DNA of 64,000 bases from Candidatus Collierbacteria bacterium RIFOXYD2_FULL_45_13 (GTDB lineage Bacteria > Patescibacteriota > Microgenomatia > UBA1400 > MFAQ01), in NCBI GenBank assembly GCA_001774685.1, contig MFAS01000001.1, forward strand, positions 705,485 through 769,484, read 5' to 3'. The notes beneath the pieces are model-generated. The model ran no database searches and was not told where the DNA came from. It saw nothing but the letters and a program-made list of their open reading frames with translations. Below are positions 11,123 to 56,120 of the stretch, piece by piece (positions within the stretch are counted from its first letter, which is position 1; every line of letters starts with the position of its first letter). Position numbers and translations under genes: made by a program.

Positions 11123-11743
11123 CTAGGCGTATTTGCGAATAACGCCTACGCACTTCCCTTGTACTTTCACGTTGATGGCAAAAATAGGGGACATGGAAGA
11201 GTTGGCCGGCTCGAGGCGAACCCTGGTTCGTTCTCTAAAAAACCTCTTGAGAGTAGCCAAACCATTTTCCAGCAAAGCGACCACAATATCTCCGTCTTTT
11301 ACAGCGCCTATTTCGCACTCTTCAATCAAAACAAAGTCGTGATCAAAGATACCCTCCTCAATCATTGAGTCTCCTTTGACTTGTAAAACAAAGGCTCTTT
11401 TTTTACCCGAAACCATTGAGGAAGACACTCTCATGGTGGCATTTGGGTCGGTTAGAGGCTCAATCGGTCTACCGGCGGCAATGTAACCCAAAATGGGAAG
11501 TTCTAGAGATGCCAGCTCAACGCTAGGTCTGTCCACCACCTCTATTCCACGGATGGCTCCATCGAATTTTCTGATAATTCCTTTTTTCTCGAGCGCTTGA
11601 AGATGTTCGTGGATTGTGGCCAGTGAAGAAACCCCGATGGCCTGGGCAATTTCCGAGAGAGTAGGAGAGTAACCATTTTTCTGAATGAACTGAGAAATAA
11701 ATTCGACGATCTGTCTTTGTCTTTTGTATAGTGTTACGGCCAT
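11123..11743 (-). CDS. lexA: LexA repressor (start moved to the internal Met MAVTLYK)
   Basis: Winged-helix N-terminal domain and a C-terminal S24 peptidase with VKGDSMIEEGI and a Lys in the expected dyad position. The upstream 23 codons of the listed ORF are a hydrophobic artefact. Confidence 0.85.
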   Translation of the reverse strand: MAVTLYKRQRQIVEFISQFIQKNGYSPTLSEIAQAIGVSSLATIHEHLQALEKKGIIRKFDGAIRGIEVVDRPSVELASLELPILGYIAAGRPIEPLTDPNATMRVSSSMVSGKKRAFVLQVKGDSMIEEGIFDHDFVLIEECEIGAVKDGDIVVALLENGLATLKRFFRERTRVRLEPANSSMSPIFAINVKVQGKCVGVIRKYA

Positions 11744-11750
11744 AAATTCA

Positions 11751-11779
11751 TTATTACCAAACAATACCCAAATGTCAAC
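11751..11779 (-). promoter_or_regulatory. candidate sigma70-like promoter for lexA
   Basis: On the reverse strand a TTGACA sits 17 nt upstream of TAATAA, which lies just upstream of the lexA ATG. No canonical LexA box was recognised. Confidence 0.4.
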
Positions 11780-11874
11780 TAACAAAACCCAAATAGCCGA
11801 TATCCATTTCATGTATTAACCCGAAGATTCTAATAATAGTATAATTCCAGAGTACGCTAAAAAAAGGAGGACCC

Positions 11875-12396
11875 ATGAAGAAGGCTGTTTTCCCGTTTTT
11901 CATTTCCGTTTTGGTGCTTGTCGCTCTTGCCTGTAGCTTGAATCCTGCGACTGTTTTTGCTACTCCCACCCCTCTTCCCACCCAGACCCCTCTTCCCACC
12001 TTCACACCTTTGCCTTCCCCCACTTCCCCATCAAGACCCGGGGTCGACTTTCCCGTCCGTTATAGCGGCACCTCTTTTACGGTGATGGAGATTTCACTCG
12101 TTACCAGCTGGAGTTTTGATGGTGACACCAAGATTCCTACGAGAACAGGCGATCTTTTTTTAGTCGTCTACCTCAAGTTTGAAGGGGATCTGAATACTGT
12201 TGTCCTGCCTCAGACTGAAGATTCGGAAAAGACGTTTCATATCGAAGATAACAACGGTCGTGTAGATCAATGGGCGCGTTTTGAACCAAGCCCCACCGTC
12301 CTTGTGGCCATCTTTGTGGGCGACGGAAGTGCCAGCAATTATATCTTTACCTTCCCCGATGGACAGGAGATCGACCTCCAATCTTTTTTATACTAA
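11875..12396 (+). CDS. secreted protein with a Pro/Thr-rich linker
   Basis: Strong Shine-Dalgarno (aaaaaaggagg) upstream; N-terminal signal peptide, a PTPLPTQTPLPT linker, then a beta-rich domain. Confidence 0.55.
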   Translation: MKKAVFPFFISVLVLVALACSLNPATVFATPTPLPTQTPLPTFTPLPSPTSPSRPGVDFPVRYSGTSFTVMEISLVTSWSFDGDTKIPTRTGDLFLVVYLKFEGDLNTVVLPQTEDSEKTFHIEDNNGRVDQWARFEPSPTVLVAIFVGDGSASNYIFTFPDGQEIDLQSFLY

Positions 12397-12444
12397 TACC
12401 CGGAGATAGCCTCCCGGGTGAGCTCCACGGTTAGTCTTTATATG

Positions 12445-12470
12445 CCCCGGTTATAACCGGGGCTCTTTTG
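12445..12470 (+). terminator. Rho-independent terminator
   Basis: Hairpin ccccgg-ttataa-ccgggg followed by ctctttt. Confidence 0.6.
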
Positions 12471-12495
12471 TGCCAAATCGGTTAAAATACACATA

Positions 12496-14547: not shown

Positions 14548-14551
14548 CTAG

Positions 14552-15094
14552 CTACATTTTTTTATAATCTTCTGAGCCAATTCCCTCAGTAACGTTTTTA
14601 AGAATTTCAATCATAAGATCATCTGGAATAGGATGCCCTAATTCTTTTTCTTCCTTATATTTCCAATAGAAAATTTTGCCAAACCGTAATTCATCTGCTT
14701 TTCCGGCATCTACCAATTCCTGCATTCTGTTTCCTAATTCTCGACCTAGTCCAGGATCCATCTCAACTAGCTTAAGCCAAAAACCTGCTAAATCCATATT
14801 CCTCCGCGCCAAAAAATGTCTTAATCTCGCAGAATCAGCAAATTCATCCCTTCTCGATAAAGCATTATCATCACTGCTTAAACCTCTGACTGGTTTTTTT
14901 AATAGATCCATGCAAGTTTGAACTGATTCAACAGTTGCCCCTTCTCTGTCACCAGCACCATCCATCACCGTTGCGGCCATTCTCATGGCATCATTGGCCT
15001 CAATTCCGTCTTCAGATTGTAGTCTGCCAGCATAGTTCCTTAGTGCCTCTTCAGCAAGTTCAGTGTGAGCGAAGTCTAAAAAAGGTGATTCCAT
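14552..15094 (-). CDS. hypothetical acidic protein (island edge)
   Basis: 180 aa with no recognisable motif; convergent on uvrB. Confidence 0.4.
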   Translation of the reverse strand: MESPFLDFAHTELAEEALRNYAGRLQSEDGIEANDAMRMAATVMDGAGDREGATVESVQTCMDLLKKPVRGLSSDDNALSRRDEFADSARLRHFLARRNMDLAGFWLKLVEMDPGLGRELGNRMQELVDAGKADELRFGKIFYWKYKEEKELGHPIPDDLMIEILKNVTEGIGSEDYKKM

Positions 15095-15165
15095 ATCTAG
15101 AATATATCAAACAATTGCATCATTAGGTGATTCACCTTTAATCTGAGGCAATCTATAATTACCAC

Positions 15166-15714
15166 ATGGACGAAGCAAAATTGGTGAGTAGTACTTGGGT
15201 TGAAAAAGGTGTGACTATGAAGTTTACCTGGTATCCCGGCGATAATCTGGAAAGGTTTCAACCATTCAATCAGGTATACGGTGTCGTCTTTAATTCAGAT
15301 GGTCAGATGCTTATTCAAAGAAGGGAGTTAAGACCTTGGTGCCTGGCCGGAGGTACTGTCGAAGAAGGGGAGACAGCCGAACAAGCTCTCAGACGAGAAC
15401 TAATTGAAGAAGCCGATGTCACCATCAAAAATCTCATCTTACTCGGTGGTCAAAGAGTGCAATTTCCCGGAGGTCACAACCCGAATCCGACCAAACGCTT
15501 TACTGGCGATGATTTTTATCAACTCCGTTATTACTGTGAAGTTGATGAGGTTCTACCTCAAACACCGGACCCCGATCACGATATCATCAACGAACGGCTC
15601 TTTGTTCCTCAAACAGAAATAAACAAATACCTGGGCTGGGGTGCCACGGGACAAGTGATCTTTGATCAAGCCATCGCTCTTTTTCATCAACTCCACCCTG
15701 CTATACTAAATTAA
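15166..15714 (+). CDS. NUDIX hydrolase (paralog A)
   Basis: Nudix box GGTVEEGETAEQALRRELIEEADV, matching G-x5-E-x7-REUxEE. Confidence 0.8.
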   Translation: MDEAKLVSSTWVEKGVTMKFTWYPGDNLERFQPFNQVYGVVFNSDGQMLIQRRELRPWCLAGGTVEEGETAEQALRRELIEEADVTIKNLILLGGQRVQFPGGHNPNPTKRFTGDDFYQLRYYCEVDEVLPQTPDPDHDIINERLFVPQTEINKYLGWGATGQVIFDQAIALFHQLHPAILN

Positions 15715-15723
15715 TGCTTACTG

Positions 15724-15966
15724 GTGACGACGAGAAAAAATATAACCCTGATCATTGATGGAATTGTTGAAGCATTAGAGGGTTTGGTTCTACCCAGATT
15801 CGACAAGATGGACGGGAGATTCGACAAGATGGATGGCGACGTCGCCGAACTTAAACAAGCGGTCGAGATTCTTGATTCAGATATGGGTGGAGTCAAGATG
15901 AGACTCAAAGTGGTCGAAAACAAACTGGACACGCTACTCTTTTATTTGTTCTCATCTTGGGTTTGA
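15724..15966 (+). CDS. small coiled-coil protein with a tandem heptapeptide repeat
   Basis: 80 aa. The DNA has a 21-bp near-perfect tandem duplication encoding [14 protein letters not shown]. Its 3' end overlaps the convergent CYTH gene by about 25 bp. Confidence 0.35.
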
Positions 15967-16472
15967 ATTTTATCAAAAATGGTAAACACTTCCTCTCCAG
16001 CTACTTCCACCTTATCTCCCAAAAGATCAATCAATTTCTGAACATCCGCTTCGTTCGGACCTTCAATCTCGGCAATATGTAGCTCTACCGGCTTCGAAAA
16101 ACCAATAAAGGCAAACACTGTTTTGTCCTTGTTCCAAATTTCTCTCACAGAAAAGTTTTCCTTTATCAATTTACATCCGAGAGAAAAAAGTATTTCCTTC
16201 ATATTTTCCGGATTATCTATGGATACATTTAGCTCTCGCCTTGTCCAGACACCTGCGTTATCCCGCTTGCCGTCTTTCAAAGTCAGCTCTTTAAACTCAC
16301 CGAACACTTCTCTCAGTCGATACAGGCTTTGGATATTGGTCATAGTATCCGCGCCAGTTCCAAAATACGAATCTCTAATTTCTTTGAATTTAGTAAAAAC
16401 AAAACCATTCGCCTTGAGCCAATCAACCACGGCTTCTCGATTTGTATATTTCAGTTTGACTTCAATTTCCAT
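15942..16472 (-). CDS. CYTH domain protein (CyaB/thiamine-triphosphatase-like)
   Basis: Starts MEIEVKL, the ExExK signature of CYTH, and is 176 aa, the typical CYTH size. Confidence 0.7.
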
Positions 16473-16488
16473 ATTATTTAATTCTTAG

Positions 16489-17232
16489 TTATTTCGTGAT
16501 TACTTTTGTTGCTTTTATTAAGTAAAACTTAGGCTTCATGAAAGCTTCGTAATAATCTTTTAATCCACTCCTCTCTGCTTCCTCGTCTGGTTTCATGTCT
16601 AAGTACTCAGTTATATATAGATTATTCTGAACGAGGGCGCCAACTAAAGTTTGGAAAGTATGGTGATACTGAATTTGTTTAAGGTTAAGAGGAGCCCATT
16701 CTCTTTCAAATTTCCCTTCTTCAAAATAGTTCCCAAGTAGAAATGCTTGTGGTTCTGTTCCTTTGACCTTTGTAGTCAAAAAAGAATATGGAACATGGCC
16801 TGAAAAAAGAAAGCTACCACCGGGCTTTAATACTCGGCAAACTTCAGAAAACGCTTTCTTTAAATCGGGAAGGTAGTCAATCACGAGTCCCGAAAACACA
16901 TAGTCGAAACTTGAATTTTGATATGGTAATTTCTCAACAGATCCAACCTTGAATTCAACATTTGGCAATTCTCTTTCTGCAATCTCAATTAACTTCTCAC
17001 TTTTATCAATACCAGATACTTTTGCTCCCAATCTAACAAATTCTTTTGTATATCTACCACTACCACAGCCTAAATCCAAGACATTCTTATCTTTTAAGTC
17101 CTGACTATTTAAAAATCTAATCGTATGAGGATATTCCAGCCATTTATTCCAGAAGTTATGACTGTCATCCATGTAGTTATGGTAGCTACCAGCAAACTGG
17201 TCGTAAGATGTTTTCACTTTTAAATTATTCAT
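16489..17232 (-). CDS. class I SAM-dependent methyltransferase
   Basis: Motif I VLDLGCGSGRYT with an acidic residue after beta-2 (GIDKSE). Confidence 0.8.
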   Translation of the reverse strand: MNNLKVKTSYDQFAGSYHNYMDDSHNFWNKWLEYPHTIRFLNSQDLKDKNVLDLGCGSGRYTKEFVRLGAKVSGIDKSEKLIEIAERELPNVEFKVGSVEKLPYQNSSFDYVFSGLVIDYLPDLKKAFSEVCRVLKPGGSFLFSGHVPYSFLTTKVKGTEPQAFLLGNYFEEGKFEREWAPLNLKQIQYHHTFQTLVGALVQNNLYITEYLDMKPDEEAERSGLKDYYEAFMKPKFYLIKATKVITK

Positions 17233-17263
17233 GCTTACTCAAATTCTAGCGCCAAATAAGACT

Positions 17264-18727
17264 TTACTCCAGTGCCAAGCCTGCCGCGACGGAAGTAAAT
17301 GGGTCAAACTCCGTAACTTTCTCTTTTCCAAAAATTTCCTCCAGCATTTTTTCGAATACTGGTACCAAAGAAGACCCTCCGGTTCTCACCACCACATCTA
17401 TATCCTTTGGCTCCAAATCGGCGTTCTTGATTGTTCTCAGGACTGTCTCTCTGACAGCCAGAACCCTCGGCTGGATCATCTTCTCAAACTCCAATCGAGT
17501 AATTTCCTCATCAATATCAATAAGGCCGTCTTTAAACACAATCCTAGCCTTTTCGTTATTGGTCAACAGCTTTTTTGCCACCTCGATTGCCTCATACATC
17601 TCAAACCCCAAATTCTTTTGAATCAAATATAGAAGCCACTCAATTGCTTTTGGGTCGGTATTTTTGTATTTTACATTTCCTGTTAGGAAACCAATATCGT
17701 CAGGATTATTTAAGTTCGGGATTCCAAACCAAGACCTTAGTCCGGCAATGATATGCCCCGGCATTCTCATCTGCATCTCGCCAAAGCGGACTTCAGTACC
17801 GAAATGCTTACCCAGTTTATGATAAAAAATATCCGAGTTAAGTAGATCTCCTCCCACATATACCCCGTCGGTCGCCAATACCTTGTACCCACTATTTTGA
17901 TTTTTTGAATTTTCGAGTTTTTCTTCGCCCACTTCCATTATTGTTGTATCGAATGTTCCTCCTCCAAAATCAAAAACGAGAATCATCTTCCCTTTACTGG
18001 GAAACTTGGACAAATAGTATTTGGCTGCCGCCACCGGTTCAAACTGGAATTTCACCTCATCAAACCCTGCGGCTCGTATTGCCTTCTCCAGTCGGTCCTG
18101 TGCGGCCATATCGGCCTCAGGACTAGTTGAAAACGAGACGGGTCTACCACAAACCACCGATTTTCTTGTTTCTCCGGCTATCAAATCCGCTGTTTTCTTG
18201 AGTTCACTCACAAACTTTCCAATCATTTCCTCTAGGGTATATTCTTTTCCAAAGACTCGCGCGCCCTTATAGTGGGGGGACTTTAAAGCGGTCTTGAGAG
18301 CGTGAAAAAGCCTTCCCGTACCAAAATCCACCTCCTCGTAGTAATCGGGGATATCTCCAGTCACCACCTTCCCGCTGGGAGTAGTATACAAAATGACATT
18401 ATTGTATTTACCCGTATAGATCCTTCGTTTGACGCCTTCATGCCTGGATTTATTGTCATTTAGGTAGGTTTTTACCGCCAGATTACCGGTAGCAACTTTC
18501 TCTTCACCTTCGTACCACACCTGATCGAACATGAAAGTATTAGTCGTTAGCTGTTCTTTGTTTACCTTATTCGAAATCATTAGCTTCCTGGGGTAGAAAT
18601 ACAAAGCAGATCTGGCCACACCTTTGTTCTCGGCTGCTTGGTCAACAGGCATCAAAACCGCCTCACCGTTGACGAGCGTGCTCAGAGAAGTATTTGTGGT
18701 ACCAAAATCCAGTCCGTAAAAAGCCAT
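17264..18727 (-). CDS. Hsp70-family actin-like ATPase (NBD only, non-canonical)
   Basis: Phosphate-1 motif GLDFGTTNTS and phosphate-2 motif VFDFGGGTFD. It lacks a typical DnaK substrate-binding domain and lid. The listed ORF starts at an upstream TTG; the ATG at 18727 is the likely start. Confidence 0.7.
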   Translation of the reverse strand: MAFYGLDFGTTNTSLSTLVNGEAVLMPVDQAAENKGVARSALYFYPRKLMISNKVNKEQLTTNTFMFDQVWYEGEEKVATGNLAVKTYLNDNKSRHEGVKRRIYTGKYNNVILYTTPSGKVVTGDIPDYYEEVDFGTGRLFHALKTALKSPHYKGARVFGKEYTLEEMIGKFVSELKKTADLIAGETRKSVVCGRPVSFSTSPEADMAAQDRLEKAIRAAGFDEVKFQFEPVAAAKYYLSKFPSKGKMILVFDFGGGTFDTTIMEVGEEKLENSKNQNSGYKVLATDGVYVGGDLLNSDIFYHKLGKHFGTEVRFGEMQMRMPGHIIAGLRSWFGIPNLNNPDDIGFLTGNVKYKNTDPKAIEWLLYLIQKNLGFEMYEAIEVAKKLLTNNEKARIVFKDGLIDIDEEITRLEFEKMIQPRVLAVRETVLRTIKNADLEPKDIDVVVRTGGSSLVPVFEKMLEEIFGKEKVTEFDPFTSVAAGLALE

Positions 18728-18981
18728 AAAACATTTGGAGGTTAACCTAAAAATTGTACAGCATGTGTTGCATAATTGCGCAGCTAAAAACTTACCAGAA
18801 TGAAAGAACACCAACTCTTCTGTCAGGAGGACTAATCATCATTTAGATAACATTATTTACACCGAAAACAAATCCAGATTAAAGTGTTCATTTTCATTTC
18901 ACAGTCTGCTTTAATTTTAAACCATTACCTAATAATGTATTTAGCTAGAAATCAAGATCAGAGACTGTAAATATAATGATA

Positions 18982-19500
18982 TTATTTTTGATATTTTATT
19001 GCTGCCCTCAACATTTGTCTTCCATGTTCACCCCAGTTCACATAAAAGTTCGCTTCGTCTGGTTTGACGAATCTTATTTCATCGATAGTACCATCCTCTG
19101 GATCCGGTGTTCTGATAACTGTTCTGTCGACAACACTTACAGTACATAATTGGAAGAAATCATTTTCGTTTTGATCATTCAGGGGACCTCGGACTTTAAA
19201 AGCTCCAAAAAGATGAATGCCCTTAGGGATTATTCCTGTTTCCTGAGTCATCTCTCTAGTTACTGTTTCTTGAAAAGTTTCGTTATTTTCGGGGCCACCT
19301 CCTTGAAAGCGCCAAACCCCATTTTCATTTTGGATCAGAACATGACCTTCACCATTGAAACATATACTATGTACCAAGGAATACGGTTTGAATTGTGTCA
19401 AGTCGTCTCCCTCAATCCATGTATAAAGATATTGTTTACCTTCCCACTCTACAATTTCGTTCTCCACAGGTCTATCGCATTCAGACATATCCAATATCAT
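18982..19500 (-). CDS. NUDIX hydrolase (paralog B of 15166-15714)
   Basis: Nudix box FQGGGPENNETFQETVTREMTQETGI, and C-terminal similarity to paralog A. The start at MILDM lies one nucleotide after the stop of the upstream gene, suggesting translational coupling. Confidence 0.7.
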   Translation of the reverse strand: MILDMSECDRPVENEIVEWEGKQYLYTWIEGDDLTQFKPYSLVHSICFNGEGHVLIQNENGVWRFQGGGPENNETFQETVTREMTQETGIIPKGIHLFGAFKVRGPLNDQNENDFFQLCTVSVVDRTVIRTPDPEDGTIDEIRFVKPDEANFYVNWGEHGRQMLRAAIKYQK

Positions 19501-19501
19501 A

Positions 19502-20170
19502 TTACAAATCAATAGGCAGGGTGTGTTCAATCCTGTATTTACTTTCTTCTGATTTATAAACATTCTTCCTATCTATTAAAATACCTTTTATAATACATAT
19601 CTCAGCAAAAGTGTCTAGATTTGTAACAAGGTCATCGATAAAAATAATATTTTTCGATAATACGATTTTGTTTATCATCAAAAAATAGAAATTCTTATCA
19701 TTTTTTAAAAAACCAATTTCATCAGAAATAAAAAACTGTTTGGCATAAGAGTTTAAATTCAGCAATTCTAAGGTTTTTCTTCTGCTGGGACGTCCATCTG
19801 AAATAATATAAACATTCCCCCCCTTTTTGTAATTTTCGAGTGCCGGTATGGCATCAGGATATAGTACATGAGCCAGTGTTCGATACTTGCTTATTGATAT
19901 CTCCCTTGCCTTATCTTCAAAGTTATTAAGGTTCAGATAAGTATTTAAAAAACCACCAAAATGATGTTCGGTTAATTTTAGTTCTTCTTTGAAGTCTTTA
20001 AAGGTAAGAGATCTATCATATAGATTACTCGACAGGCAATAGCTTTCATATTTACCCTTCAAGTCGCGATCGGAAACCCCTAAAATATTTTCCATGATTT
20101 GTAGATCAGTTTCAAATTCCGGTAATATTCTGTAACCTAATGTCTCTGCGAAATCTATAAATATATCCAT
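19502..20170 (-). CDS. HAD-like hydrolase with a degenerate motif I
   Basis: Motif II YIISDG, a Lys region, and motif IV IIFIDDLVTN are present. Motif I reads FIDFAET, so the second Asp is missing and the protein may be inactive or a variant. Confidence 0.35.
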   Translation of the reverse strand: MDIFIDFAETLGYRILPEFETDLQIMENILGVSDRDLKGKYESYCLSSNLYDRSLTFKDFKEELKLTEHHFGGFLNTYLNLNNFEDKAREISISKYRTLAHVLYPDAIPALENYKKGGNVYIISDGRPSRRKTLELLNLNSYAKQFFISDEIGFLKNDKNFYFLMINKIVLSKNIIFIDDLVTNLDTFAEICIIKGILIDRKNVYKSEESKYRIEHTLPIDL

Positions 20171-21750
20171 TATTCTGAACCTGATAGAAACTTAGCGATT
20201 AAATCAGAATTTATCTCAAATTCTTTTCTGATTTCTTCCATAGTTCCACGCCTCGTGGGATGATTTATATGATATACTCCACAAGCTAGCACGGGTATTA
20301 TAAAGGCCCCAGCTGAAATCGCCTTTATTCCGATAAGAGAATCTTCCAGTCCATAACCGCTAAATTTATTATCAAAACCTCCAGTGGCGTAAAAAAGATT
20401 CTTTGGAATTGACAAATTGTGACCAACAACCATTGAAGGTAGATCAAAATTGCCGAGTCTTCTCCCAAAACCCAATGTCCTAAAGTAATTTGTTTCTGAC
20501 AGTATCGAAAAAATATCCCCTTGCGCTAAATAGTTGTTGGAGTAATATCCCATAGTGTCCTTATCAATGTACTTGGTAATTCTCAGGTCACTGCTATAGT
20601 TTGGCATCACAACACCGCGCTTAACTGCATCGTAAGATATTCTCACATCAGTTGGTTCAGCATTCTCTTTGAAACTTACAAGCAGGGCTTTATTAACAAG
20701 TTTGTGCCTCAGCAGATGCTCGTATAAATAATTTGGTGTTAGTACCACATCACCATCGATAAACAATAGAATATCATTTGAAGAAACTGCGGCACCGATG
20801 TTCCTCGTTTGTGAGATACCTGAATTTTTTTCTTTTCTAATAATAATGGGTTCATAGCGCAAATCATCCTGAACCTTTTTGATAATTTCCGAGACAGGTT
20901 CTTTTGATCCATCATCTACGACAATGACCTCAAATTTAATTACATCGGGAGTTTGTCGGTCTATTGATTTTAAAGTTTTGATTATAGATTCCCCTAGATT
21001 AAATGCCGGAATGATTATCGACACTGATGGCAAATCCGCGGTATAAATCTTGGGAGTCGGGGCAGAACCGAGCATTTTGTATCCGGTTATTTGTTCAAAA
21101 ACTGTAACAAGCTCACCGTAATCATTAGAAACGGCGCTTATTTGATGAAAATAGGAAGTGGTGGTAGACAAAGATAAGCTCAGATTCACCTGTTTGCAAA
21201 AATTAATAACCTTTTCATTCAATACTCCGAGATCATCGACTAAGCTTTCATCAACAATTTTACTGGTTCTATGGATAAGCTTATCTTTATCAATCTTATT
21301 CTTAAGTATTTTTTGAATTGTCTCTGATTTAAACTTAGCATCTTCGTGGCACAGAATTTCAAACTGATGTTCAGAAATCAGAGTATCACTAAGGTAAATA
21401 ACGCTAGCCTCTTGATCCTCCGGGAAAGAGAGCTGTATTACGTTACTGAGAGCAGCACTCTTTAATCCTGCACCAAAAAGCACATTTAATAACGTACCTA
21501 AAAATTTGGATTTAAATTTCGCTTCTCTCCAGGTTTCTGTGGTCTTCACCGAGATACGACGTCCCAAGAATAGGTTGTTTTCATCACACCTAAGTCTGAT
21601 TTCATTTTCGAAATACAATGTCAACACTCTCTTAACACGCGGAAACCCAAGTTCGTTAGACAAATCACGTATTAGTTGATTCACTTCAGCGTCATCTTGA
21701 AAAAGACAAATATTGTTAATTAAATCGGATTTTGACGCATCGTATCTCAT
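20170..21750 (-). CDS. family 2 glycosyltransferase with a 240-aa N-terminal domain of unknown function
   Basis: GT2 core (VSIIIPAFN...VIVVDDGS...FIDGDVV) in the C-terminal half; the N-terminal half has no recognisable motif. Confidence 0.7.
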   Translation of the reverse strand: MRYDASKSDLINNICLFQDDAEVNQLIRDLSNELGFPRVKRVLTLYFENEIRLRCDENNLFLGRRISVKTTETWREAKFKSKFLGTLLNVLFGAGLKSAALSNVIQLSFPEDQEASVIYLSDTLISEHQFEILCHEDAKFKSETIQKILKNKIDKDKLIHRTSKIVDESLVDDLGVLNEKVINFCKQVNLSLSLSTTTSYFHQISAVSNDYGELVTVFEQITGYKMLGSAPTPKIYTADLPSVSIIIPAFNLGESIIKTLKSIDRQTPDVIKFEVIVVDDGSKEPVSEIIKKVQDDLRYEPIIIRKEKNSGISQTRNIGAAVSSNDILLFIDGDVVLTPNYLYEHLLRHKLVNKALLVSFKENAEPTDVRISYDAVKRGVVMPNYSSDLRITKYIDKDTMGYYSNNYLAQGDIFSILSETNYFRTLGFGRRLGNFDLPSMVVGHNLSIPKNLFYATGGFDNKFSGYGLEDSLIGIKAISAGAFIIPVLACGVYHINHPTRRGTMEEIRKEFEINSDLIAKFLSGSE

Positions 21751-21758
21751 ATTTGTAA

Positions 21759-22268
21759 TTATTTAATATTTCTGTCCAGACCAAAAAGGTTTTTGTATTG
21801 GACGAGATCTAATTCCAAAAATTGATATTTTTTTGGATCAAAAAACATTTCAGGGTAAAAGTTTGAACTATCCCGCAATTCCTCTTCAGTTTTTAGTATA
21901 CATTTTTTAATTTTTTCATATCCTGTATATTCTTTCTGAACTATTTCAATTTCATTAAATTTCATTTCCGTTTCACATTCAAAAAAGAACTCAAAGTTTC
22001 TATCAAATGGGGATACGGTTTCTTTTACAAATCTCAATTCTTTGGCTACAAAATTCTTTATGTTTAATTCTTCACCAATTTCCCTGTCTAGTGTTGCAAT
22101 CAAGGATTCGTTGGATTTTGCGTGACCTCCAGGGAAAAGTAGATAATCATTTCTTGAGGCGTTCATCTGCTCAATAACTAAATATTTTTCATCAAACTTG
22201 AACACGGCTCTGACAACCACAACAATTTTTTCGTTATTCATATTAGTTTGAATACCATCTGTTAACAA
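21759..22268 (-). CDS. NUDIX hydrolase (C)
   Basis: Nudix box FPGGHAKSNESLIATLDREIGEELNI. Confidence 0.75.
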   Translation of the reverse strand: MLTDGIQTNMNNEKIVVVVRAVFKFDEKYLVIEQMNASRNDYLLFPGGHAKSNESLIATLDREIGEELNIKNFVAKELRFVKETVSPFDRNFEFFFECETEMKFNEIEIVQKEYTGYEKIKKCILKTEEELRDSSNFYPEMFFDPKKYQFLELDLVQYKNLFGLDRNIK

Positions 22269-22881
22269 AGGGGATAGAACCCTTAAGATTATCTAAATCC
22301 TGTTTTGGGATAAGTAAGTTCATAACTCTTTTTGTGTCATCCTTATCATCAGGAACATGGATAAGGTTAGAAGCGAATAAGTCAATACCAATTTGCTTTG
22401 TGGTCACAGGATCTAGGGTCCCGTTCTTCCACGCTTCGAGCGTTTGATCATCGATCGGATTACTGCTACCAAATCTTCCCCGAACTCCCTCGCCTGTTCT
22501 AACACTGCCCTTGAGTTTTTTTAATAAAATTGGTGCGTCCTTAGCCGCTACGAGCATGAGTCCAATCGGACCTGTTTGAAAATGCTCCTGAATATATTTT
22601 AAAAACTCCTCATGCTTCTGTTCAGGGTATAACTTCTTAACATCCTCAGGTTTAATACGGATTTCGGTAAATCCAAAAAATTCCACAGGTTTATCTGTCA
22701 TTTGTTCCAACTCTCGCTGGATAAAATCCCTAATGGGCAAATCAAGAAGCGAGTTGGTGGAATCAGGTTTAAAGAGAACCATGCCAATCCCATTTTTTTC
22801 TTCCTCGGGAGTTAATATGTCTTCGTAAAAATCTCCCATTTCACTAAATCTATTTTGAACATAATCTGGAGTTATTTCCAT
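22243..22881 (-). CDS. nucleoside diphosphate kinase-like protein (divergent)
   Basis: An MVLFKPDS region corresponds to the IKPD motif, and NLIHVPDD corresponds to the NxxHGSDS active-site His motif. At 212 aa it is longer than canonical NDK. Confidence 0.5.
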   Translation of the reverse strand: MEITPDYVQNRFSEMGDFYEDILTPEEEKNGIGMVLFKPDSTNSLLDLPIRDFIQRELEQMTDKPVEFFGFTEIRIKPEDVKKLYPEQKHEEFLKYIQEHFQTGPIGLMLVAAKDAPILLKKLKGSVRTGEGVRGRFGSSNPIDDQTLEAWKNGTLDPVTTKQIGIDLFASNLIHVPDDKDDTKRVMNLLIPKQDLDNLKGSIPFVNRWYSN

Positions 22882-23750
22882 ATTTCCAATTGTTTTATAT
22901 AATCCACAACCGACTCGGGCGATCCTTGAATTGAGTAACAGGGGATTTTTTGAGCAACTTCTTTAACGGATTGTATTCTATGGTCACCATTCGCACGACT
23001 ATCAATTGAAGGCACAGCGATATTACCATCTTTAACTCTTCTGGAGATTGCTCTAATTTTTCTACCTAGTTCTTCATATAAATGCCACTCAAATTTTTCC
23101 GGTCTCCAAAGATCTGTCGACATCTCAGCACCATTTATTCCAAAACCGTAGACAAATAAAGCGATCGGAACAGGTTCAGAATTATTAGTTGCTGAATGGT
23201 AATAAGAGTCCTCTTGTTTGTCGGTGATCTGTCTCTTCCAATAGTCTTTATCTAGATAAATAAAGGGGATTCCTCCAAGTATTTCCATATTCCTCGCATT
23301 AACTAATGTCTTCTCATCGGAATAGAAAGACCCATCATTTGCGAGCAGTTTTGCAAGCCTTGTCTTACCCATCCCACTTGCACCTCCCCAAAAGATTACA
23401 GCCTTGCCTTTATAAACTGCCGTAGCGGAATGAATACAAAAAATGCCTTTCTCCTGTCTGACTCTTTCAAAAACCAACTCTATTAATGAGATTATCTCTT
23501 TTTCGCTTACTCCTTTTATGCCTATTTTAATCTTCGGATAATCTTTAAATTCAAAAAAAACTTCTTGATTCAAAAATTCTACGCTAGCCTCAATATTATT
23601 ATCAGTCGCAAGAGAGAATCCTGGAATATATTTACTTAAAAAATCATTATTTTGTATTGTCTCCGCCAATTCACCACTCTCAAAAATCACTCTTAGTGTT
23701 AATCCTGCTGAAGAAAGGTATAGCTCTTTATTCTTTGATGGCATTTTCAA
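22872..23750 (-). CDS. HPr kinase/phosphorylase C-terminal-domain-like P-loop protein
   Basis: IHSATAVYKGKAVIFWGGASGMGKTRLAKLL matches the HprK-type P-loop region (VLIxGxSGxGKSE). Confidence 0.55.
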   Translation of the reverse strand: MKMPSKNKELYLSSAGLTLRVIFESGELAETIQNNDFLSKYIPGFSLATDNNIEASVEFLNQEVFFEFKDYPKIKIGIKGVSEKEIISLIELVFERVRQEKGIFCIHSATAVYKGKAVIFWGGASGMGKTRLAKLLANDGSFYSDEKTLVNARNMEILGGIPFIYLDKDYWKRQITDKQEDSYYHSATNNSEPVPIALFVYGFGINGAEMSTDLWRPEKFEWHLYEELGRKIRAISRRVKDGNIAVPSIDSRANGDHRIQSVKEVAQKIPCYSIQGSPESVVDYIKQLEIWK

Positions 23751-24846
23751 AATAATTTTCTAAATTCATTGCTTTTATATCCCAATTCCAGGTTTCGGAT
23801 TTTTTTCTGGCCTCATCGCCAATAGTGTTACGGAGAGTTTCATCCAATAGTAATTTTTCAATCTCGGTCGCGAGCGATACGGCATCCCGCGGATTCGCAA
23901 GTAGACCATTGACACCATGGTCTACAAATTCAGGCATGCTACAACTATTTGTTGTAACGGTTGGTATACCACAAGCCGCAGCTTCAAGCATCGTCGTTAG
24001 CACACCCTCACGATCAAATGATGGGGCAGAAAAAACTTTCGATCTGTTGTACAAGGAGAGTACATCTTCTTGGGGGACATAACCAATAAATTCGATATTG
24101 TCTGAAAGTTCTAGTCTATCAACCAGCTCTACCAACGACTCTTTCTGATTACCTTTTCCGGCAATCACCACTTTTGGATTTAGTCCTTTGTTAACTAAAA
24201 TTTTAACAGCATCGACAAGATAGTTAACACCTTTTACTGGAACCAGTCTGCCAAAATACAAAATATCTATGTCTTTGGTAACTTGTATTGGATGATAGTT
24301 TGTCGTATCTATCCCATTTGTGAAGGGTATATATTCAATTCCGCCAACCATTTCTGACCATTTCTGTCCAATATATTTTGATACTGAAATATATTTTACA
24401 TTTGGAAATGAGAACCAGATTTTGTCGTAATACTCTGCTTCAGCAGGAACACCGTGCAGAAACATTACTGCGGGGAACTTAATATTTGCAGCCAAAATAT
24501 CCACGTTGTAATGGACATTAAGTACGTCATAAATATTTTTATCGAAATAATTTTGAGCTAATCTTCCCATGTGAATAGCTTCGTAGTCCCATCTCAGCTG
24601 ATTTGTTCCGGGTTTTTCCTCATATATCCATCTGAGGGATGTGGGTAATTCAAGATAGATGACTTCAACGCTTGGATTCACTGAGAGATACTTGTCAAAA
24701 TATTCTGAGTTACCATCGGGATGGCGGGAAGTAACGACCGTTACCTTATGTCCATGTAAAGCAAAATTTCTAGCCATTTCCAGTGGAACCACCTCCCCAC
24801 CCCCAACATAATAACTTACCCTAGGCTGATAAATGGCTATTTTCAT
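23728..24846 (-). CDS. family 4 (GT-B) glycosyltransferase
   Basis: 372 aa with the C-terminal EGVLTTMLEAAACGIPTVTT motif (E-x7-E region) typical of GT4. Confidence 0.8.
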   Translation of the reverse strand: MKIAIYQPRVSYYVGGGEVVPLEMARNFALHGHKVTVVTSRHPDGNSEYFDKYLSVNPSVEVIYLELPTSLRWIYEEKPGTNQLRWDYEAIHMGRLAQNYFDKNIYDVLNVHYNVDILAANIKFPAVMFLHGVPAEAEYYDKIWFSFPNVKYISVSKYIGQKWSEMVGGIEYIPFTNGIDTTNYHPIQVTKDIDILYFGRLVPVKGVNYLVDAVKILVNKGLNPKVVIAGKGNQKESLVELVDRLELSDNIEFIGYVPQEDVLSLYNRSKVFSAPSFDREGVLTTMLEAAACGIPTVTTNSCSMPEFVDHGVNGLLANPRDAVSLATEIEKLLLDETLRNTIGDEARKKSETWNWDIKAMNLENYFENAIKE

Positions 24847-25334
24847 ATCAAATTATCTTTTAGAGTCATAATCTGTGCTTTTCCTGTCGGGCTGTTTGCC
24901 CAGCTTATATATTGGTCAAACTCGTCAATATCTATTAGTTTACGTTCGAAAATCTCGTCGTCGGGAATAAATTCCGGTAAATCACTCAATATTACTAAAA
25001 ATCTTAATTGTGAACTTGATTTACCCTCAACCCCTTCATTCTGAGGATCCGAAACTTTCATCCAACCTATCAATTTAGACTTATACCTCTCTTTGATTTC
25101 AGCTTCCTCGTCAAGTTCTCTTGCAAGAGCTTCTTCTACACTCTCTCCCTCCTCTGGGTGACCTCCTGGAATTGCCCACCCTCTCTTATTTCTCACAATA
25201 ATCAGCTTCCCTTTATATATACAGTAAGCACTCACCTGGCTGACTTTTAATGTGGGGTCAGGATTTCCTGAAAACCAGCTAATAGTAATATTACGATCAT
25301 CAAAATTGACTACCTCAGTTGCTAATGGTTCCAT
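24843..25334 (-). CDS. NUDIX hydrolase (D)
   Basis: Nudix box IPGGHPEEGESVEEALARELDEEAEI. Confidence 0.8.
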   Translation of the reverse strand: MEPLATEVVNFDDRNITISWFSGNPDPTLKVSQVSAYCIYKGKLIIVRNKRGWAIPGGHPEEGESVEEALARELDEEAEIKERYKSKLIGWMKVSDPQNEGVEGKSSSQLRFLVILSDLPEFIPDDEIFERKLIDIDEFDQYISWANSPTGKAQIMTLKDNLI

Positions 25335-25336
25335 TA

Positions 25337-26050
25337 TTATTTGTTACTAAGATTGTTAAATGATTCCAATAATACTATCTTAAAACCTCCGACAAAATTG
25401 GCCATTGCCTTTTGTGAAAACCAACCTAAGGGTAGAAAAATCACGCGAAATACTTCATAAAACAGTTTTGATCTCTTTGGTAGTGGAATATATCCCTCCT
25501 TCAAGATTTTAAAACCGGCAATCGTAAATAATTTATTTAACTGCTTTTCATTATAGTGATGAATATGACCATATCTCTCCTCGCTTTCCTTCCACGGGTC
25601 TCTAATGCCGAGTTTTCGGATAATTTGATTATCTAGAAAAGAATCTTCCATCGGAACTTTAATACAAACCAGCTTACCCAATTCACCCATGCGTTTTAAC
25701 AAACCCAAGTCATCTTCTACGTGTTCAATGATATCAATGCCTGTAACTAAGTCAAAATTTGCCTTAGGGGAGTACTTATATATATCCTCGCAAATCCACT
25801 CAATTTCATGGTCCGTATCATTCTCCTTCGCCACTTTTATCATATCTTTGGAAATATCAATTCCTACAGCCATATCTGGCTTTAGTTTTGCATTGAATTC
25901 CATGGTAATACCACCTGCACCACAAGCTACATCCAGAAGTGAGTCTATTTTTAGTGAACCTAAAAAATTTAAGACTTGCTTAGCTTTTAACTGAGCTTGT
26001 TCCAGATGAAGTCCCGGATTTTTTAAAATATATTCTTTTTGATAATCCAT
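25337..26050 (-). CDS. class I SAM-dependent methyltransferase
   Basis: Motif I LLDVACGAGGIT. It is the first gene of the overlapping operon. Confidence 0.8.
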   Translation of the reverse strand: MDYQKEYILKNPGLHLEQAQLKAKQVLNFLGSLKIDSLLDVACGAGGITMEFNAKLKPDMAVGIDISKDMIKVAKENDTDHEIEWICEDIYKYSPKANFDLVTGIDIIEHVEDDLGLLKRMGELGKLVCIKVPMEDSFLDNQIIRKLGIRDPWKESEERYGHIHHYNEKQLNKLFTIAGFKILKEGYIPLPKRSKLFYEVFRVIFLPLGWFSQKAMANFVGGFKIVLLESFNNLSNK

Positions 26051-26216
26051 GATTATTATTTTAAACTAATCCCTACCATATTACTTAACATTCGGGATTC
26101 ATTTAAACATATTGCGTCATCACATCATAATATATATTTGTAAGTCAAGGGGTAGAGTCGTGTTGGTTTAGTATTATTCGGGTATTTTAGGGTGATTTGG
26201 CGTATAATAGACAGTC

Positions 26217-29141
26217 ATGTCCGGCACCTCACCCTCCACTCATTTGATAATCAAGGGAGCACGTCAGCATAACCTCAAGAACGTCAATCTGACACTGCCC
26301 AAGAACAAACTGGTTGTCTTCACCGGTGTCTCCGGTAGCGGTAAGTCCAGTATGGCCCACGATACCATCTACGCCGAAGGTCAGCGCCGATATGTCGAAT
26401 CTCTTTCTTCTTATGCACGGCAATTCCTAGGAGTTATGGACAAGCCGGATGTGGACCAGATCGAGGGTCTTTCGCCGGCCATTCTTATAGACCAGAAGCA
26501 GGGGAGTCACAATCCACGTAGTACCGTCGGTACCGTCACCGAGATCTATGATTATCTCCGTCTCCTCTTCGCCCGTATTGGGCACCCACATTGCCCCCAA
26601 TGTGGTCGTGAGATCATGCCTCAGGACATTAACCAGATCTATAAAGCCGTCGTTGATCTGGCAGTCGGCCACCCCAGCCATCAAAAACAAAAAGGGGTGC
26701 GCTTGCTGATACTGGCGCCAATTGTCAAAAATCAAAAGGGGGAGTTCAAGGAACTTTTCCCCGGCTTGGTCAAGCAGGGGATTGCCGAAGTCAGAGTTGA
26801 CCGCAAAATCCTCTCCACCCAATCCACTCTATCTCTTTTCAAAAATAACCGCCACAATGTCGAGGCCGTTATTGATAAACTCGTGATCGGCCAAGTGGGG
26901 GGCAGTCCTGAGTACGAAAAACAAAGATTGGTCGATTCCTTGGAACAAGCACTCAAAATCTCGGATGGCGAGGTTTATGTCAGCATTGTTATCGATCCTT
27001 CTCTTTCCTTTCCCACCGATCCTGAGGATATGGAGGATCATTTGTTCTCTCAAAAGCTCGCTTGTCCTGTTGATAATATTTCTATACCCGAAATCGAACC
27101 TCGCTATTTCTCTTTCAATGCCCCCGAAGGTGCCTGTCCCGAATGTACCGGTCTCGGTACTAAGATGGTTCTGGACGCCGACTCGGTTATCTCACCCTCG
27201 CTCAGTTTTCTTGAAGGCGCCGTCATACCCCTTGCTTCACAATTCGAAACCAGAACCTGGTTGGCGAAATTAATTCTTGAAGCCATGGAATCGGTTGGCT
27301 TTCCCGGAAACAAACCGCTCCTAGACATGACGGAAGACCAGAAGCGAGTCTTATTCACCGGAACCGGAGAAAAAACTTTTTCCATCAAAGGAATAAACAG
27401 ACATGGCAAGCACGTCGTGAGAAAAATGACCTTCGACGGACTCTCTAAAGAATTCGAAAGACGTTACGAAGAATCCAGCTCGGATTCATTTAAGGAAGAA
27501 ATTTCAAAATATCTAATCCGTAAAACCTGCCCGGTCTGTCTCGGCACCCGTCTCAAGCCGGAAGTCTTAGCCGTTCATGTAGACAACCAATCTATTAGTG
27601 AAGTCACTTCTTGGTCGACAGCTAAGTCATTTGCTTTCTTCGACAAACTATTTAAGAAATTAACTCTCACCGAACAGCAAATCAGTGAACCAATTGTCAA
27701 GGAAATAAAGGACAGACTTAGTTTTCTAATGTCGGTCGGTCTTGATTACATCACTCTGGCACGAGAATCCGGTACGCTATCCGGTGGGGAGTTACAAAGA
27801 ATCCGTCTGGCAAGCCAAATCGGTTCCCGACTAACCGGCATACTCTATGTTTTGGATGAGCCCACCATTGGCTTACACCAGCGCGACAACGCCAAACTTA
27901 TCAAAACTCTTCAAGATCTGGTTTCGCTCGGTAACTCGTTGGTCGTTGTGGAACACGATCAGCAAACCATGGAAAGTGCCGACCACATCGTAGAGTTCGG
28001 TCCAAAAGCCGGTTATCTCGGGGGAAAAATTACTTTCGAAGGAACGGTCGACGAAATGAAGTCCTCTGATTGTTTGACCGGCCAATATCTCTCCGGCAAG
28101 AAATCTGTCGTCGCCATCAAGCCCAAAGAGTCCGCAGAAAGCCCGGCATCTATTCGATTAACCGGCTGTACACACCATAATCTAAAAAACATTGATGTCG
28201 ATTTCCCGCTGAATAAATTTGTTGCCGTCACCGGGGTTTCCGGATCCGGAAAATCCTCACTGGTTGTGGACTCTCTCTATGAGGCTCTCTCACAAAAATT
28301 AAACCCCCAGCATCACAAAGAGGATATCAAGTTTGGGACTATCACTATCCCTGATATCGTCAGAAGAGTATCTTTAATTGACCAAAGTCCAATCGGGAAA
28401 ACTCCTAGAAGTAATCCGGCAACTTACACCAAAGTCTTTGACTATATCCGCCAACTGTTTGCGAACACCCAAGAGGCAAGATACCGTGGATACGGACCAG
28501 GTCGCTTTAGTTTTAACGTCAAAGGGGGACGCTGCGAAACCTGTGAAGGTGACGGTCAAATCAAAATAGAGATGCAGTTCCTGGGGGACATTTATATTAC
28601 CTGCGAAACCTGCAAAGGCACTCGTTTTAATGATCCAACTCTTGAAGTCGAATACAAAGGTAAAAACATTGCTCAAGTGTTGGACATGACAATGGATGAG
28701 GCCAGCGACTTTTTTAGAAATGTACCGGCTATCAGCAAAAAAATAGAGACAATTAAGAAGGTAGGGCTCGGCTATATCAAGCTTGGACAAAGTGCACCTA
28801 CCCTGTCGGGGGGAGAGGCCCAACGTGTCAAACTGGCCACAGAGCTGGCCAAAACCGGCAGTGGCCATACAGTTTATATTCTCGACGAACCAACTACCGG
28901 TCTGCATTTTGAAGATCTTAGTAAGTTAGTACAAACATTAGTTGATCTAGTGAATCAAAACAATACCGTTATTGTCATAGAACACAATCTAGACGTTATC
29001 AAGAATGCCGACTATATTATTGACATTGGGCCTGAAGGAGGGGACTCGGGTGGTGAGCTCATTGCCAGTGGATCGCCATCAAAAGTTTCCGGCCGGTTTG
29101 ACACACCTACGGCCCAAGAGTTAAAAAAGCTATTATTCTAA
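26217..29141 (+). CDS. uvrA: excinuclease ABC subunit A
   Basis: 974 aa with two ABC ATPase modules (GVSGSGKSS at each Walker A), LSGGE signatures and zinc-finger cysteines. Confidence 0.95.
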
Positions 29142-56105: not shown

Positions 56106-56120
56106 CTATATATCATCTTA

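Follow-up and report, generated by a model that had tools for sequence, protein, structure and literature searches.

The locus described here raises the question of whether nine genes packed on one strand of a bacterial genome belong together and, if so, what they might make. The genes lie in a 64,000-nucleotide stretch from Candidatus Collierbacteria bacterium RIFOXYD2_FULL_45_13 (assembly GCA_001774685.1, contig MFAS01000001.1, positions 705,485 to 769,484), which is referred to here as the window; the host, Candidatus Collierbacteria, belongs to the Microgenomates of the candidate phyla radiation (CPR). Nine consecutive open reading frames (ORFs) run along the minus strand from position 26050 to position 18982, as taken from the ORF list of the window and labelled with Pfam and NCBIfam. 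We find that they very probably form one operon-like cassette, and that what makes the locus interesting is its conserved gene content and not its packing. The nine genes, in their order on the minus strand, and the spacer upstream of them are as follows.

26051..26216, divergent intergenic region common to MTase1 and uvrA, presumed promoter region
25337..26050, minus, MTase1, S-adenosylmethionine (SAM)-dependent methyltransferase, the first gene (Pfam Methyltransf_23/25/11)
24843..25334, minus, NudA, Nudix hydrolase (Pfam NUDIX 4.6e-13)
23728..24846, minus, GT4 (GT-B) glycosyltransferase (Pfam Glycos_transf_1 3.9e-41)
22872..23744 (alternative TTG start 23750), minus, kinase, a miniature PEPCK/HprK-fold P-loop kinase of 290 amino acids (aa), no local Pfam match
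22243..22881, minus, NDK-like phosphotransferase, 212 aa (Pfam NDK 31.7 bits, cutoff 27)
21759..22241 (alternative TTG start 22268), minus, NudM, Nudix hydrolase (Pfam NUDIX 5.5e-7; weakly Nudt16-like)
20170..21750, minus, GT2 (GT-A) glycosyltransferase, 526 aa, with the GT2 domain at residues ~240 to 480 and an uncharacterized N-terminal alpha/beta domain of 235 aa
19502..20170, minus, HAD-IA family hydrolase (Pfam Hydrolase 28.3 bits; NCBIfam YjjG-type 3.4e-7)
18982..19500 (alternative ATG 19563), minus, NudB, Nudix hydrolase and variable ninth gene (Pfam NUDIX 2e-14)

Conservation, packing and setting of the gene set

A one-genome-per-species scan gave 18 related loci, and components were counted over 24 nonredundant loci whose ORFs were labelled with the window proteins, Pfam-verified references and family hidden Markov models (HMMs). 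The scan loci came from Shapirobacteria, Paceibacterota/Parcubacteria, Lloydbacteria and two DPANN archaea (a woesearchaeote and a pacearchaeote), as well as from bins labelled Saccharibacteria, Clostridia, Bacillales, Muribaculaceae and Gammaproteobacteria; labels of metagenome-assembled genomes (MAGs) are given as deposited, and some may reflect binning errors. All kinase homologues that carried a source name were labelled CPR. The Nudix, GT4 and kinase genes were always adjacent, in CPR, in Firmicutes-labelled MAGs and in DPANN archaea alike, with a Nudix gene in 24/24 loci and GT4 beside the kinase in 24/24. A nucleotide-kinase-like gene was present in 22 of the 24 (NDK-like in 15, an AAA_18 P-loop kinase in 6 and a thymidylate-kinase-like, or Tmk, protein in 1), GT2 in 21 (of the three loci without it, two are truncated contigs), HAD in 19 and a methyltransferase in 12. 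The junction from GT4 to the kinase measured 0 to -29 nucleotides (nt) in 21/21 measured loci, and GT2 and HAD were adjacent in 18 loci. When the NDK-like protein was used as the homologue query, only six close relatives were found. Three arrangements of the cassette can be told apart.

Microgenomates type (the window): MTase-Nudix-GT4-kinase-NDK-Nudix-GT2(525 aa)-HAD(-Nudix)
Parcubacteria type: GT2(330 aa)-HAD-NDK-Nudix-GT4-kinase
Firmicutes-labelled type: MTase-GT2(500 aa)-HAD-Nudix-GT4-kinase, with a convergent AAA_18 gene

The order of nine or eight genes is repeated in Shapirobacteria and in relatives of the Collierbacteria host at different chromosomal sites, and a six-gene core is repeated across Parcubacteria, Firmicutes-labelled MAGs and DPANN archaea. 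One locus (L026) has the gene content of the window shuffled over both strands, and in this and two other loci (L021 and L024) the cassette genes occupy both strands and are still adjacent. Members of the set are also fused to each other or to a further domain, in five ways.

GT2+HAD, locus L010, 612 aa, in synthase-then-phosphatase order
GT2+Nudix, locus L021, 466 aa
HAD+Nudix, locus L014, 406 aa
Nudix+Nudix, locus L027, 321 aa
BpsA_C (branched-chain polyamine synthase-like, methyltransferase fold)+kinase, P0232, locus L030, 1094-3013

In the last case, a metagenomic locus, the fusion gene is followed by Nudix, GT4, GT2 and thymidylate-kinase-like genes. Three steps are filled by exchangeable proteins: the HAD is of the HAD-IA family in the Microgenomates type and in L026 and a nonorthologous Hydrolase_3 protein elsewhere, the NDK-like gene swaps with an AAA_18 or Tmk-like gene, and the long GT2 swaps with a short one. 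That nonorthologous proteins fill the same step shows that it is the step which is needed and not a particular gene. Recurrent adjacency together with fusion of the members is the standard comparative-genomic signature of a single pathway. The first-pass annotation of this DNA had proposed a single functional unit and had named scattering of the genes in relatives as an observation that would speak against it; the relatives have them reshuffled but always adjacent, and the proposal is strongly supported by the recurrence in 24 loci, the differing sites and the five types of fusion.

The same annotation had described nine reverse-strand genes that overlap or abut throughout, and this holds. Start codons were picked by homologue alignment together with NCBI gene calls and the junctions were read off the sequence; with these homology-supported starts, the eight same-strand junctions span -17 to +8 nt. 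They measure +2 nt (MTase1 to NudA), -4 nt (NudA to GT4, ATGA), -17 nt (GT4 to kinase, ATG 23744; -23 nt with TTG 23750), -10 nt (kinase to NDK-like), +1 nt (NDK-like to NudM, ATG 22241; -26 nt with TTG 22268), +8 nt (NudM to GT2), -1 nt (GT2 to HAD, TAATG) and +1 nt (HAD to NudB, ATG 19500; -62 nt with ATG 19563). At least two of the eight are short spacers, and three or four are with ATG starts. The domain labels of the earlier annotation also agree with ours, but its range of 4 to 26 nt for the overlaps depends on TTG starts, the 26-nt overlap coming from the longest-ORF TTG start at 22268. Its upper bound of 26050 is correct, but at its lower bound of 19500 the ninth gene only begins, and this gene extends to 18982.

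Junctions of at most 10 nt make up 8/8 within the unit and 13 to 17 of the 39 other same-strand junctions of the window, for which the naive probability is ~1e-3 to 1e-4. Equally tight or overlapping junctions occur in the type IV pilus operon of the window (53865-61795, minus strand), so that tight packing is a habit of this genome and not a peculiarity of the cassette. The packing of the nine genes is real and nonrandom, yet ordinary for the genome. The pilus operon itself encodes a PilB-like T2SSE protein (60092-61795) and a PilC-like T2SSF protein (58859-60088) and also holds two large ORFs with no Pfam match (54654-56105 and 56124-57473).

Consensus scans, which are a weak test in a CPR genome, found no terminator-like site on the minus strand of 18982-26050 and no excess of promoter-like matches within the unit over shuffled sequences (29 versus 30.4 +/- 5.5). 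Of the spacers upstream of the nine genes, 26051..26216 alone exceeds 10 nt, and in it the hexamer TAAAAT stands 7 nt before the ATG of MTase1 and resembles the TATAAT-before-ATG pattern at other first genes of the window. No Rfam match at an E value of <=1 was obtained in window positions 14000-27000, this spacer included, and so no riboswitch or leader names a ligand; in seven related loci, Rfam found tRNA and rRNA only. None of the nine starts is preceded by Shine-Dalgarno complementarity, which is also weak before 28/32 other genes (the threshold of <=-6 kcal/mol is reached by 4/32). We had considered the missing Shine-Dalgarno sites as evidence for coupling and rejected this, because such sites are weak genome-wide and their absence does not discriminate. 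Conservation of the junctions makes translational coupling within the unit plausible, and the nine genes would be cotranscribed. As a separate observation, several first genes of the window have a TATAAT-like hexamer ~6 to 12 nt before the ATG and no Shine-Dalgarno site (26200-26216, 30778-30793, 15150-15165 and 49774-49790). Together with the weak Shine-Dalgarno sites in 28/32 genes, this suggests that leaderless or very short-leader mRNAs may be widespread in the organism.

The nine genes have a GC content of 36.5%, versus 43.9% in the rest of the window, where the lowest 7-kb stretch has 41.1% (standard deviation, 1.3%). The low-GC island in which they lie is flanked by uvrB (12496-14547) and uvrA (26217-29141), and a 254-nt gap separates NudB from the rest of the island (15166..18727), which contains four more genes.

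17264-18727, minus, Hsp70-like ATPase, YegD-type (NCBIfam PRK11678 6e-39), without substrate-binding domain
16489-17232, minus, MTase2, second SAM methyltransferase (Pfam)
15942-16472, minus, CYTH triphosphate-tunnel protein (Pfam)
15166-15714, plus, NudD, fourth Nudix protein (Pfam), 34% identical to NudB

MTase2, the CYTH protein and NudD are further nucleotide-phosphate enzymes beside the cassette. The Hsp70-like gene follows the cassette in the window and in its two closest relatives (L028, 12303-13739; L029, 12307-13746), with varying orientation (it is on the opposite strand in L029), and it is absent from Shapirobacteria and from the other cassette types. This block looks accessory and may be a lineage-specific attachment or partner.

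The two closest relatives differ in their insertion sites. In L028, whose GT2 is 76% identical, the cassette occupies the same uvrA/uvrB site, and in L029 (GT2 68% identical) it lies beside gyrB and an H+-PPase gene. Two shapirobacterial loci (L004 and L008) have it in yet other contexts, and a resolvase gene lies near the cassette of L026. An identical NDK-like protein is encoded on the 1.09-Mb contig MFAP01000001.1 of Candidatus Collierbacteria bacterium RIFOXYB2_FULL_46_14 (GCA_001774675.1). In view of the low-GC island and the differing insertion sites, the cassette appears to behave as a mobile accessory module that was acquired horizontally. A phage origin was considered and rejected, since no relatives of the kinase were found in IMG/VR viral contigs. 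Four loci have DNA repair genes beside them, namely uvrA/uvrB (the window and L028), UvrD (L023) and RecG (L008); a link with repair was likewise dropped, and the adjacency is probably due to chance, because in six other loci ten more genes at the flanks have no connection with DNA metabolism.

Enzymes of the cassette

The kinase had been labelled HprK-like. This is right for the superfamily but not for the closest family, as the whole protein fits ATP-dependent PEPCK much better than HprK/P. In a Foldseek search with its AlphaFold2 model (pLDDT 92.2), ATP-PEPCK was matched with an E value of 5e-9 and a query TM score of 0.57, and HprK/P with an E value of 8e-5 and a TM score of 0.25. The protein has the P-loop GxxGxGK[ST] with a preceding His, an acidic motif and the fold of the HprK C-domain, and it also has the two-domain PEPCK fold with the His, Lys-Thr and Asp ligands. 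Its invariant residues are H105, G124-x-G126-K127-T128, D143-E144-K145, W220, Y223-E224 and R231. An HMM alignment with E. coli Pck pairs H105 with H232 and K127/T128 with K254/T255, and motif spacing pairs D143 with D269; the metal and phosphate ligands of PEPCK are kept. Equivalents of the oxaloacetate-binding residues R65, K212/K213 and R333 of PEPCK could not be mapped. In sequence, the relationship is distant. A profile search of the PDB gave E values of 0.5 for HprK/P and 0.02 to 0.8 for ATP-PEPCK, the best being 0.024 over 35 residues and not significant, and the curated HprK models gave 21 bits (TIGR04355, cutoff 200) and 15 bits (TIGR04352), with no match to Hpr_kinase_C. A precomputed Pfam match to ScmC exists, and a literature search for this name returned only unrelated acronyms. 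Taken together, a half-size PEPCK-fold kinase is the description that suits the protein best. Its family comprises 288 representatives at an E value of <=1e-10 (~290 clusters at 50% identity, among 1.84 billion representative proteins). No HPr gene or conserved small ORF was found in any locus.

MTase1 has the SAM motif LLDVACGAG and a NodS match of 26 bits (cutoff 24), and its orthologues head the cassette in six further loci (L004, L008, L026, L027, L028 and L029). The best PDB sequence matches of GT4 are BshA, PimB', MshA, sucrose-phosphate synthase (SPS) and TarM, among which BshA, MshA and SPS use the small acceptors malate, inositol phosphate and fructose-6-phosphate, respectively. The NDK-like protein has 212 aa, versus ~140 to 150 aa for canonical NDK, with an N-terminal extension and an insert of ~20 residues that are kept among orthologues. 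At 24 bits, it is far from the NCBIfam NDK cutoff of 202, the equivalog level. Its K, Y, R and N residues and the catalytic His (in NLIHVPDD, which we take to align with NGTHGSD of E. coli NDK) are conserved in 10 orthologues. For the HAD, three Microgenomates orthologues were compared (window, 19502-20170; L004, 13572-14261; L008, 13544-14311), and motif I reads D-F-A-[EK]-T in them, so that the nucleophilic Asp is kept and Ala occupies the Asp+2 position. The Hydrolase_3-type proteins of other cassettes, which are not orthologous to it, read DIDGT, DIDDT, DIDET or DIDST. Replacement of the Asp+2 general acid/base by Ala hints that the Microgenomates HAD might act on a substrate with a good leaving group, e.g., an acyl- or enol-phosphate or a pyrophosphate. 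Apart from this residue and a Glu-to-Gln change in the Nudix box of NudB, the catalytic motifs of the nine proteins are intact.

The three Nudix proteins of the cassette are of two kinds. NudA represents a universal orthologous group, whose members immediately precede GT4 in almost every locus and carry an N-terminal F-D-G-R...W extension and a C-terminal Y-I-x-W...SPTG extension; its similarity to any solved Nudix structure is only ~1e-5. Its Nudix box, GHPEEGESVEEALARELDEEAEI, keeps all catalytic Glu and Arg residues, with the box Gly replaced by Glu. NudM, with the box GHAKSNESLIATLDREIGEELNI, likewise keeps them and has Asn for Gly. It resembles the other Nudix proteins at the box only, belongs to a different lineage and is confined to cassettes of the Microgenomates type. 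NudB and NudD are paralogues of the NudA group, with 27 to 34% identity to each other and to NudA (27% between NudB and NudA, 34% between NudB and NudD). In the box of NudB, GGPENNETFQETVTREMTQETGI (REMTQETGI), Gln replaces the first Glu of the EE pair that the Shapirobacteria orthologue in L004 has, and the activity of NudB may be reduced or altered in the lineage of the window. Of the relatives, L004 has NudB, L008 and L029 do not, and in L028 the gene lies out of place, behind the Hsp70-like gene. Extra Nudix copies occur in L013, L026 and L028, nearby but unlinked ones in L008 and L024, and a tandem fusion in L027. The copy number, 1 to 4 per cassette, is a recurrent trait that varies. The first-pass annotation had taken three Nudix genes to mean distinct substrates or steps. 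NudA and NudM do appear nonredundant, but a fixed three-step design is unsupported, because the copy number and the presence of NudB vary and NudB is a paralogue of NudA.

What the cassette may make

None of the nine proteins has a predicted membrane-spanning segment, the sole hydrophobic peak (in GT2) being a predicted β-strand of the GT-A core, and the unit contains no flippase, polymerase or polyprenyl-phosphate transferase. Soluble enzymes, a glycosyltransferase followed by or fused to HAD, a GT4 always paired with a kinase of a small-molecule type and a frequent methyltransferase argue for glycosylation of a phosphorylated acceptor in the cytoplasm. The reading that we favor, with a probability of about 40%, is that the cassette makes a small intracellular sugar compound by glycosylation of a phospho-acceptor and subsequent dephosphorylation. 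The PEPCK-fold kinase would phosphorylate a small acceptor; hydroxy- or keto-acids and sugars are the most plausible candidates. GT4, whose translation may be coupled to that of the kinase, and GT2 would each add a sugar from a nucleoside diphosphate (NDP)-sugar to the phosphorylated intermediate, HAD would remove the phosphate, following the logic of GpgS-MggA-MggB and other synthase/phosphatase pairs, and the methyltransferase would cap the product. The Nudix and NDK-like enzymes could hydrolyze or police NDP-sugars, NDPs or nucleoside triphosphates (NTPs) and rephosphorylate the released nucleotide, a recycling that would matter where an organism cannot make nucleotides de novo. The substrates, the order of the steps and the product are those that we infer from the gene content. 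It is conceivable, if rather doubtful, that the product is more specifically a new methylated diglycoside whose synthesis depends on phosphorylation, or else a glycosylated molecule derived from a nucleotide. It would be made by an undescribed pathway with built-in nucleotide recycling that is typical of ultra-small symbionts (CPR, DPANN and some reduced Firmicutes) and centered on a new half-size PEPCK-fold kinase family obligatorily paired with GT4.

Several observations weigh against this favored reading. The archaeal loci and L030 are without HAD, and in the HAD of the window the Asp+2 general acid is missing (DFAET), an unusual state for a phosphomonoesterase. The long GT2 is nearer to K4CP and ppGalNAc-T and in this resembles a polymer or peptide transferase. 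NudA is more similar to MutT-type NTP pyrophosphohydrolases than to known NDP-sugar hydrolases. For the recycling of nucleotides, a housekeeping NDK would be enough, and since a dedicated nucleotide kinase is kept all the same, the nucleotide itself is perhaps an intermediate. Finally, relatives of the HprK family that occur in clusters for ribosomally synthesized and posttranslationally modified peptides (RiPPs) are peptide kinases (PMC8498205).

The strongest of the alternatives makes a nucleotide, a nucleoside or a nucleic acid the target: the MutT-like Nudix would turn an NTP or NDP-X into a nucleoside monophosphate, HAD would act as a nucleotidase, the kinase and the NDK-like, AAA_18 or Tmk-like enzymes would rephosphorylate a modified nucleotide, and the glycosyltransferases and methyltransferase would decorate the nucleoside, the nucleotide or DNA/RNA that carries it. 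A similar logic is known from the glucosylation of hydroxymethylcytosine in phage T4 and from the Nudix-plus-phosphatase steps TunN/TunG of the tunicamycin pathway. We regard this as unlikely, although much in the cassette is consistent with it. The dedicated nucleotide-kinase-like genes of 22/24 loci come from three unrelated families, the nearest solved relatives of NudA are small MutT-type (d)NTP/Ap6A hydrolases and RppH, the best named match of the window HAD is the noncanonical pyrimidine nucleotidase YjjG, HAD+Nudix and Nudix+Nudix fusions exist, DNA repair genes flank four loci, and a CYTH triphosphatase and a fourth Nudix gene share the island. However, no locus contains a base-modifying enzyme (thymidylate-synthase-like protein, dioxygenase or deaminase), viral contigs contain no homologue, the remaining flanks have nothing to do with DNA metabolism, and GT2+HAD fusions in synthase-phosphatase order better suit a glycoside-phosphate route.

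Phospho-glycosylation of a protein or peptide, in which the kinase would be an HprK-fold Ser kinase or a metabolite-sensing regulator of GT4 and the glycosyltransferases would then O-glycosylate the target, is improbable in our view. Ser residues are the targets of HprK/P and of the HPr-kinase homologues from lasso-peptide clusters, and pseudomycoidin is subsequently glycosylated (PMC8498205). The kinase has weak TIGR04355 and TIGR04352 matches besides the precomputed one to ScmC, and its obligate adjacency to or overlap with GT4 could reflect a complex. Yet the full-length fold fits PEPCK far better than HprK/P (query TM scores, 0.57 and 0.25), the Nudix, NDK and HAD proteins would have no obvious role, and neither a conserved small ORF or candidate substrate gene nor RiPP maturation genes accompany the cassette. 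An all-against-all comparison of ORFs of 25 to 130 aa from all loci gave only antisense shadows of the enzyme genes, and a RiPP or other peptide substrate was rejected as the primary model.

An antiphage or other conflict system that depletes or modifies nucleotides would suit a mobile low-GC island, with a resolvase gene beside the cassette in L026, and weak matches in PADLOC (Nudix to the candidate PDC-S07 and MTase to mad2) and to the Pfam family GT4-conflict point the same way. This is very improbable, since the PADLOC matches are to generic Nudix and MTase domains and the other five proteins of the nine gave no match, GT4-conflict scores 28 bits versus 141 bits for generic GT4, no sensor or effector architecture is present, and the wide conservation and contents are those of a metabolic pathway; a defense system was rejected on the PADLOC result, and an eLife paper on conflict systems does not cover the cassette. 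That the genes form no functional unit and are unrelated ones packed tightly in a compact genome, as the frequent tight junctions elsewhere in the window and in the pilus operon would allow, is hardly credible for a gene set found in 24 loci and two domains of life, at different sites and with member fusions.

Three observations made along the way concern other genes. In L016, from a Patescibacteria MAG, a 23S rRNA match just downstream of the cassette (11479-15943) spans 4465 nt, versus 2925 nt for the model, which implies that this 23S rRNA gene carries putative insertions of ~1.5 kb. In the window, the longest-ORF calls of a transglutaminase-core gene (29143-30948) and uvrC (30794-32131), both on the plus strand, overlap by 155 nt; this is probably a start codon ambiguity, and NCBI starts uvrC later. 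An 816-aa ORF without a Pfam match (47323-49773, minus strand) lies beside the gene of an 868-aa Kelch-repeat/Big_13/CarboxypepD_reg protein (44645-47251, minus strand), which is probably a surface protein.

Relation to known systems

No characterized counterpart of the gene combination was found in Pfam or NCBIfam names, in PADLOC or in the searchable literature, and because much of the literature is unsearchable, "undescribed" is a provisional term. Each domain family is known, as are glycoside and glycan clusters; what is provisionally new is the set of a PEPCK-fold mini-kinase, GT4, Nudix, an atypical NDK, GT2 and HAD across CPR, DPANN and Firmicutes-labelled bins. CPR bacteria and DPANN archaea are not known to synthesize their own nucleotides or lipids. 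They make up a large share of microbial diversity, have tiny genomes and are almost uncultured. As the cassette is kept, exchanged and rebuilt from nonorthologous parts, it likely matters for their biology. With its six to nine soluble enzymes, it is a defined and compact target for heterologous expression and the discovery of metabolites, it offers a new family of miniature PEPCK-fold kinases, and it would be an example from nature of a glycosylation pathway into which nucleotide-handling enzymes are directly integrated. Should the more specific reading of an undescribed pathway hold, its product might be a characteristic metabolite of ultra-small symbionts, or a surface or storage compound. 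Should the product prove to be a new glycoside or a modified nucleotide, it might be of use as a biomarker or physiological handle for CPR and DPANN.

In gene content, the cassette is most similar to pathways such as GpgS-MggA-MggB, GpgS/GpgP, MpgS/MpgP, SPS/SPP and OtsA/OtsB, with which it shares soluble GT-A, GT4 and HAD-type phosphatase enzymes. In mannosylglucosylglycerate (MGG) synthesis, GpgS (GT-A) makes glucosyl-3-phosphoglycerate, the retaining GT4 enzyme MggA mannosylates it and the HAD-like MggB dephosphorylates the product, and the three genes are operon-like in some bacteria (PMC3736172); a GT4 acting on a phosphorylated acceptor and an operon-like arrangement would be common to both systems. 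The 1-nt overlap of GT2 and HAD in the window and the GT2+HAD fusion of L010 are further similarities to glycoside-phosphate synthase/phosphatase pathways; GT-then-HAD fusions are known among MpgS/MpgP, TPS/TPP and GG-phosphate enzymes (in part from PMC10873239). However, the GT2 proteins of the cassette appear not to be GT81, GT55 or GT20 enzymes as in GpgS-, MpgS- and OtsA-type pathways, the window HAD has DFAET and not DxDxT, and the known pathways are without a dedicated kinase, Nudix, NDK-like protein or methyltransferase.

For the Nudix proteins, there are precedents of two kinds. The GDP-mannose mannosyl hydrolase WcaH/Gmm and the ADP-glucose pyrophosphatase AspP are Nudix enzymes embedded in glycan or nucleotide pathways, and the cassette Nudix genes similarly lie inside a glycosyltransferase cluster. 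They also adjoin an NDK-type enzyme, and in mycobacteria the Nudix domain of MutT1 dephosphorylates phospho-NDK and thereby regulates NDK (PMC11784022). Unlike these known pathway enzymes, the NudA type forms its own orthologous group with extensions and occurs in 1 to 4 copies and as tandem fusions.

The kinase shares its superfamily and the arrangement of P-loop, His and Asp with HprK and the RiPP kinases (lasso-peptide kinases, HprK-related kinases A and B and ScmC). It differs from them in falling below all curated cutoffs and in having no HPr, precursor peptide, PqqD, radical-SAM or lasso genes near the cassette, and its N-terminal half is PEPCK-like, whereas the N-terminal domain of HprK/P is MurE/F-like. 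With ATP-PEPCK (PckA), it shares the motif series xxH-S-A, G-x-x-G-x-GKT and x-D-E, which corresponds to H232, K254-T255 and D269 of Pck. It is smaller (290 versus 520 to 540 aa) and only 9 to 14% identical, and it is always paired with GT4, whereas PEPCK never is.

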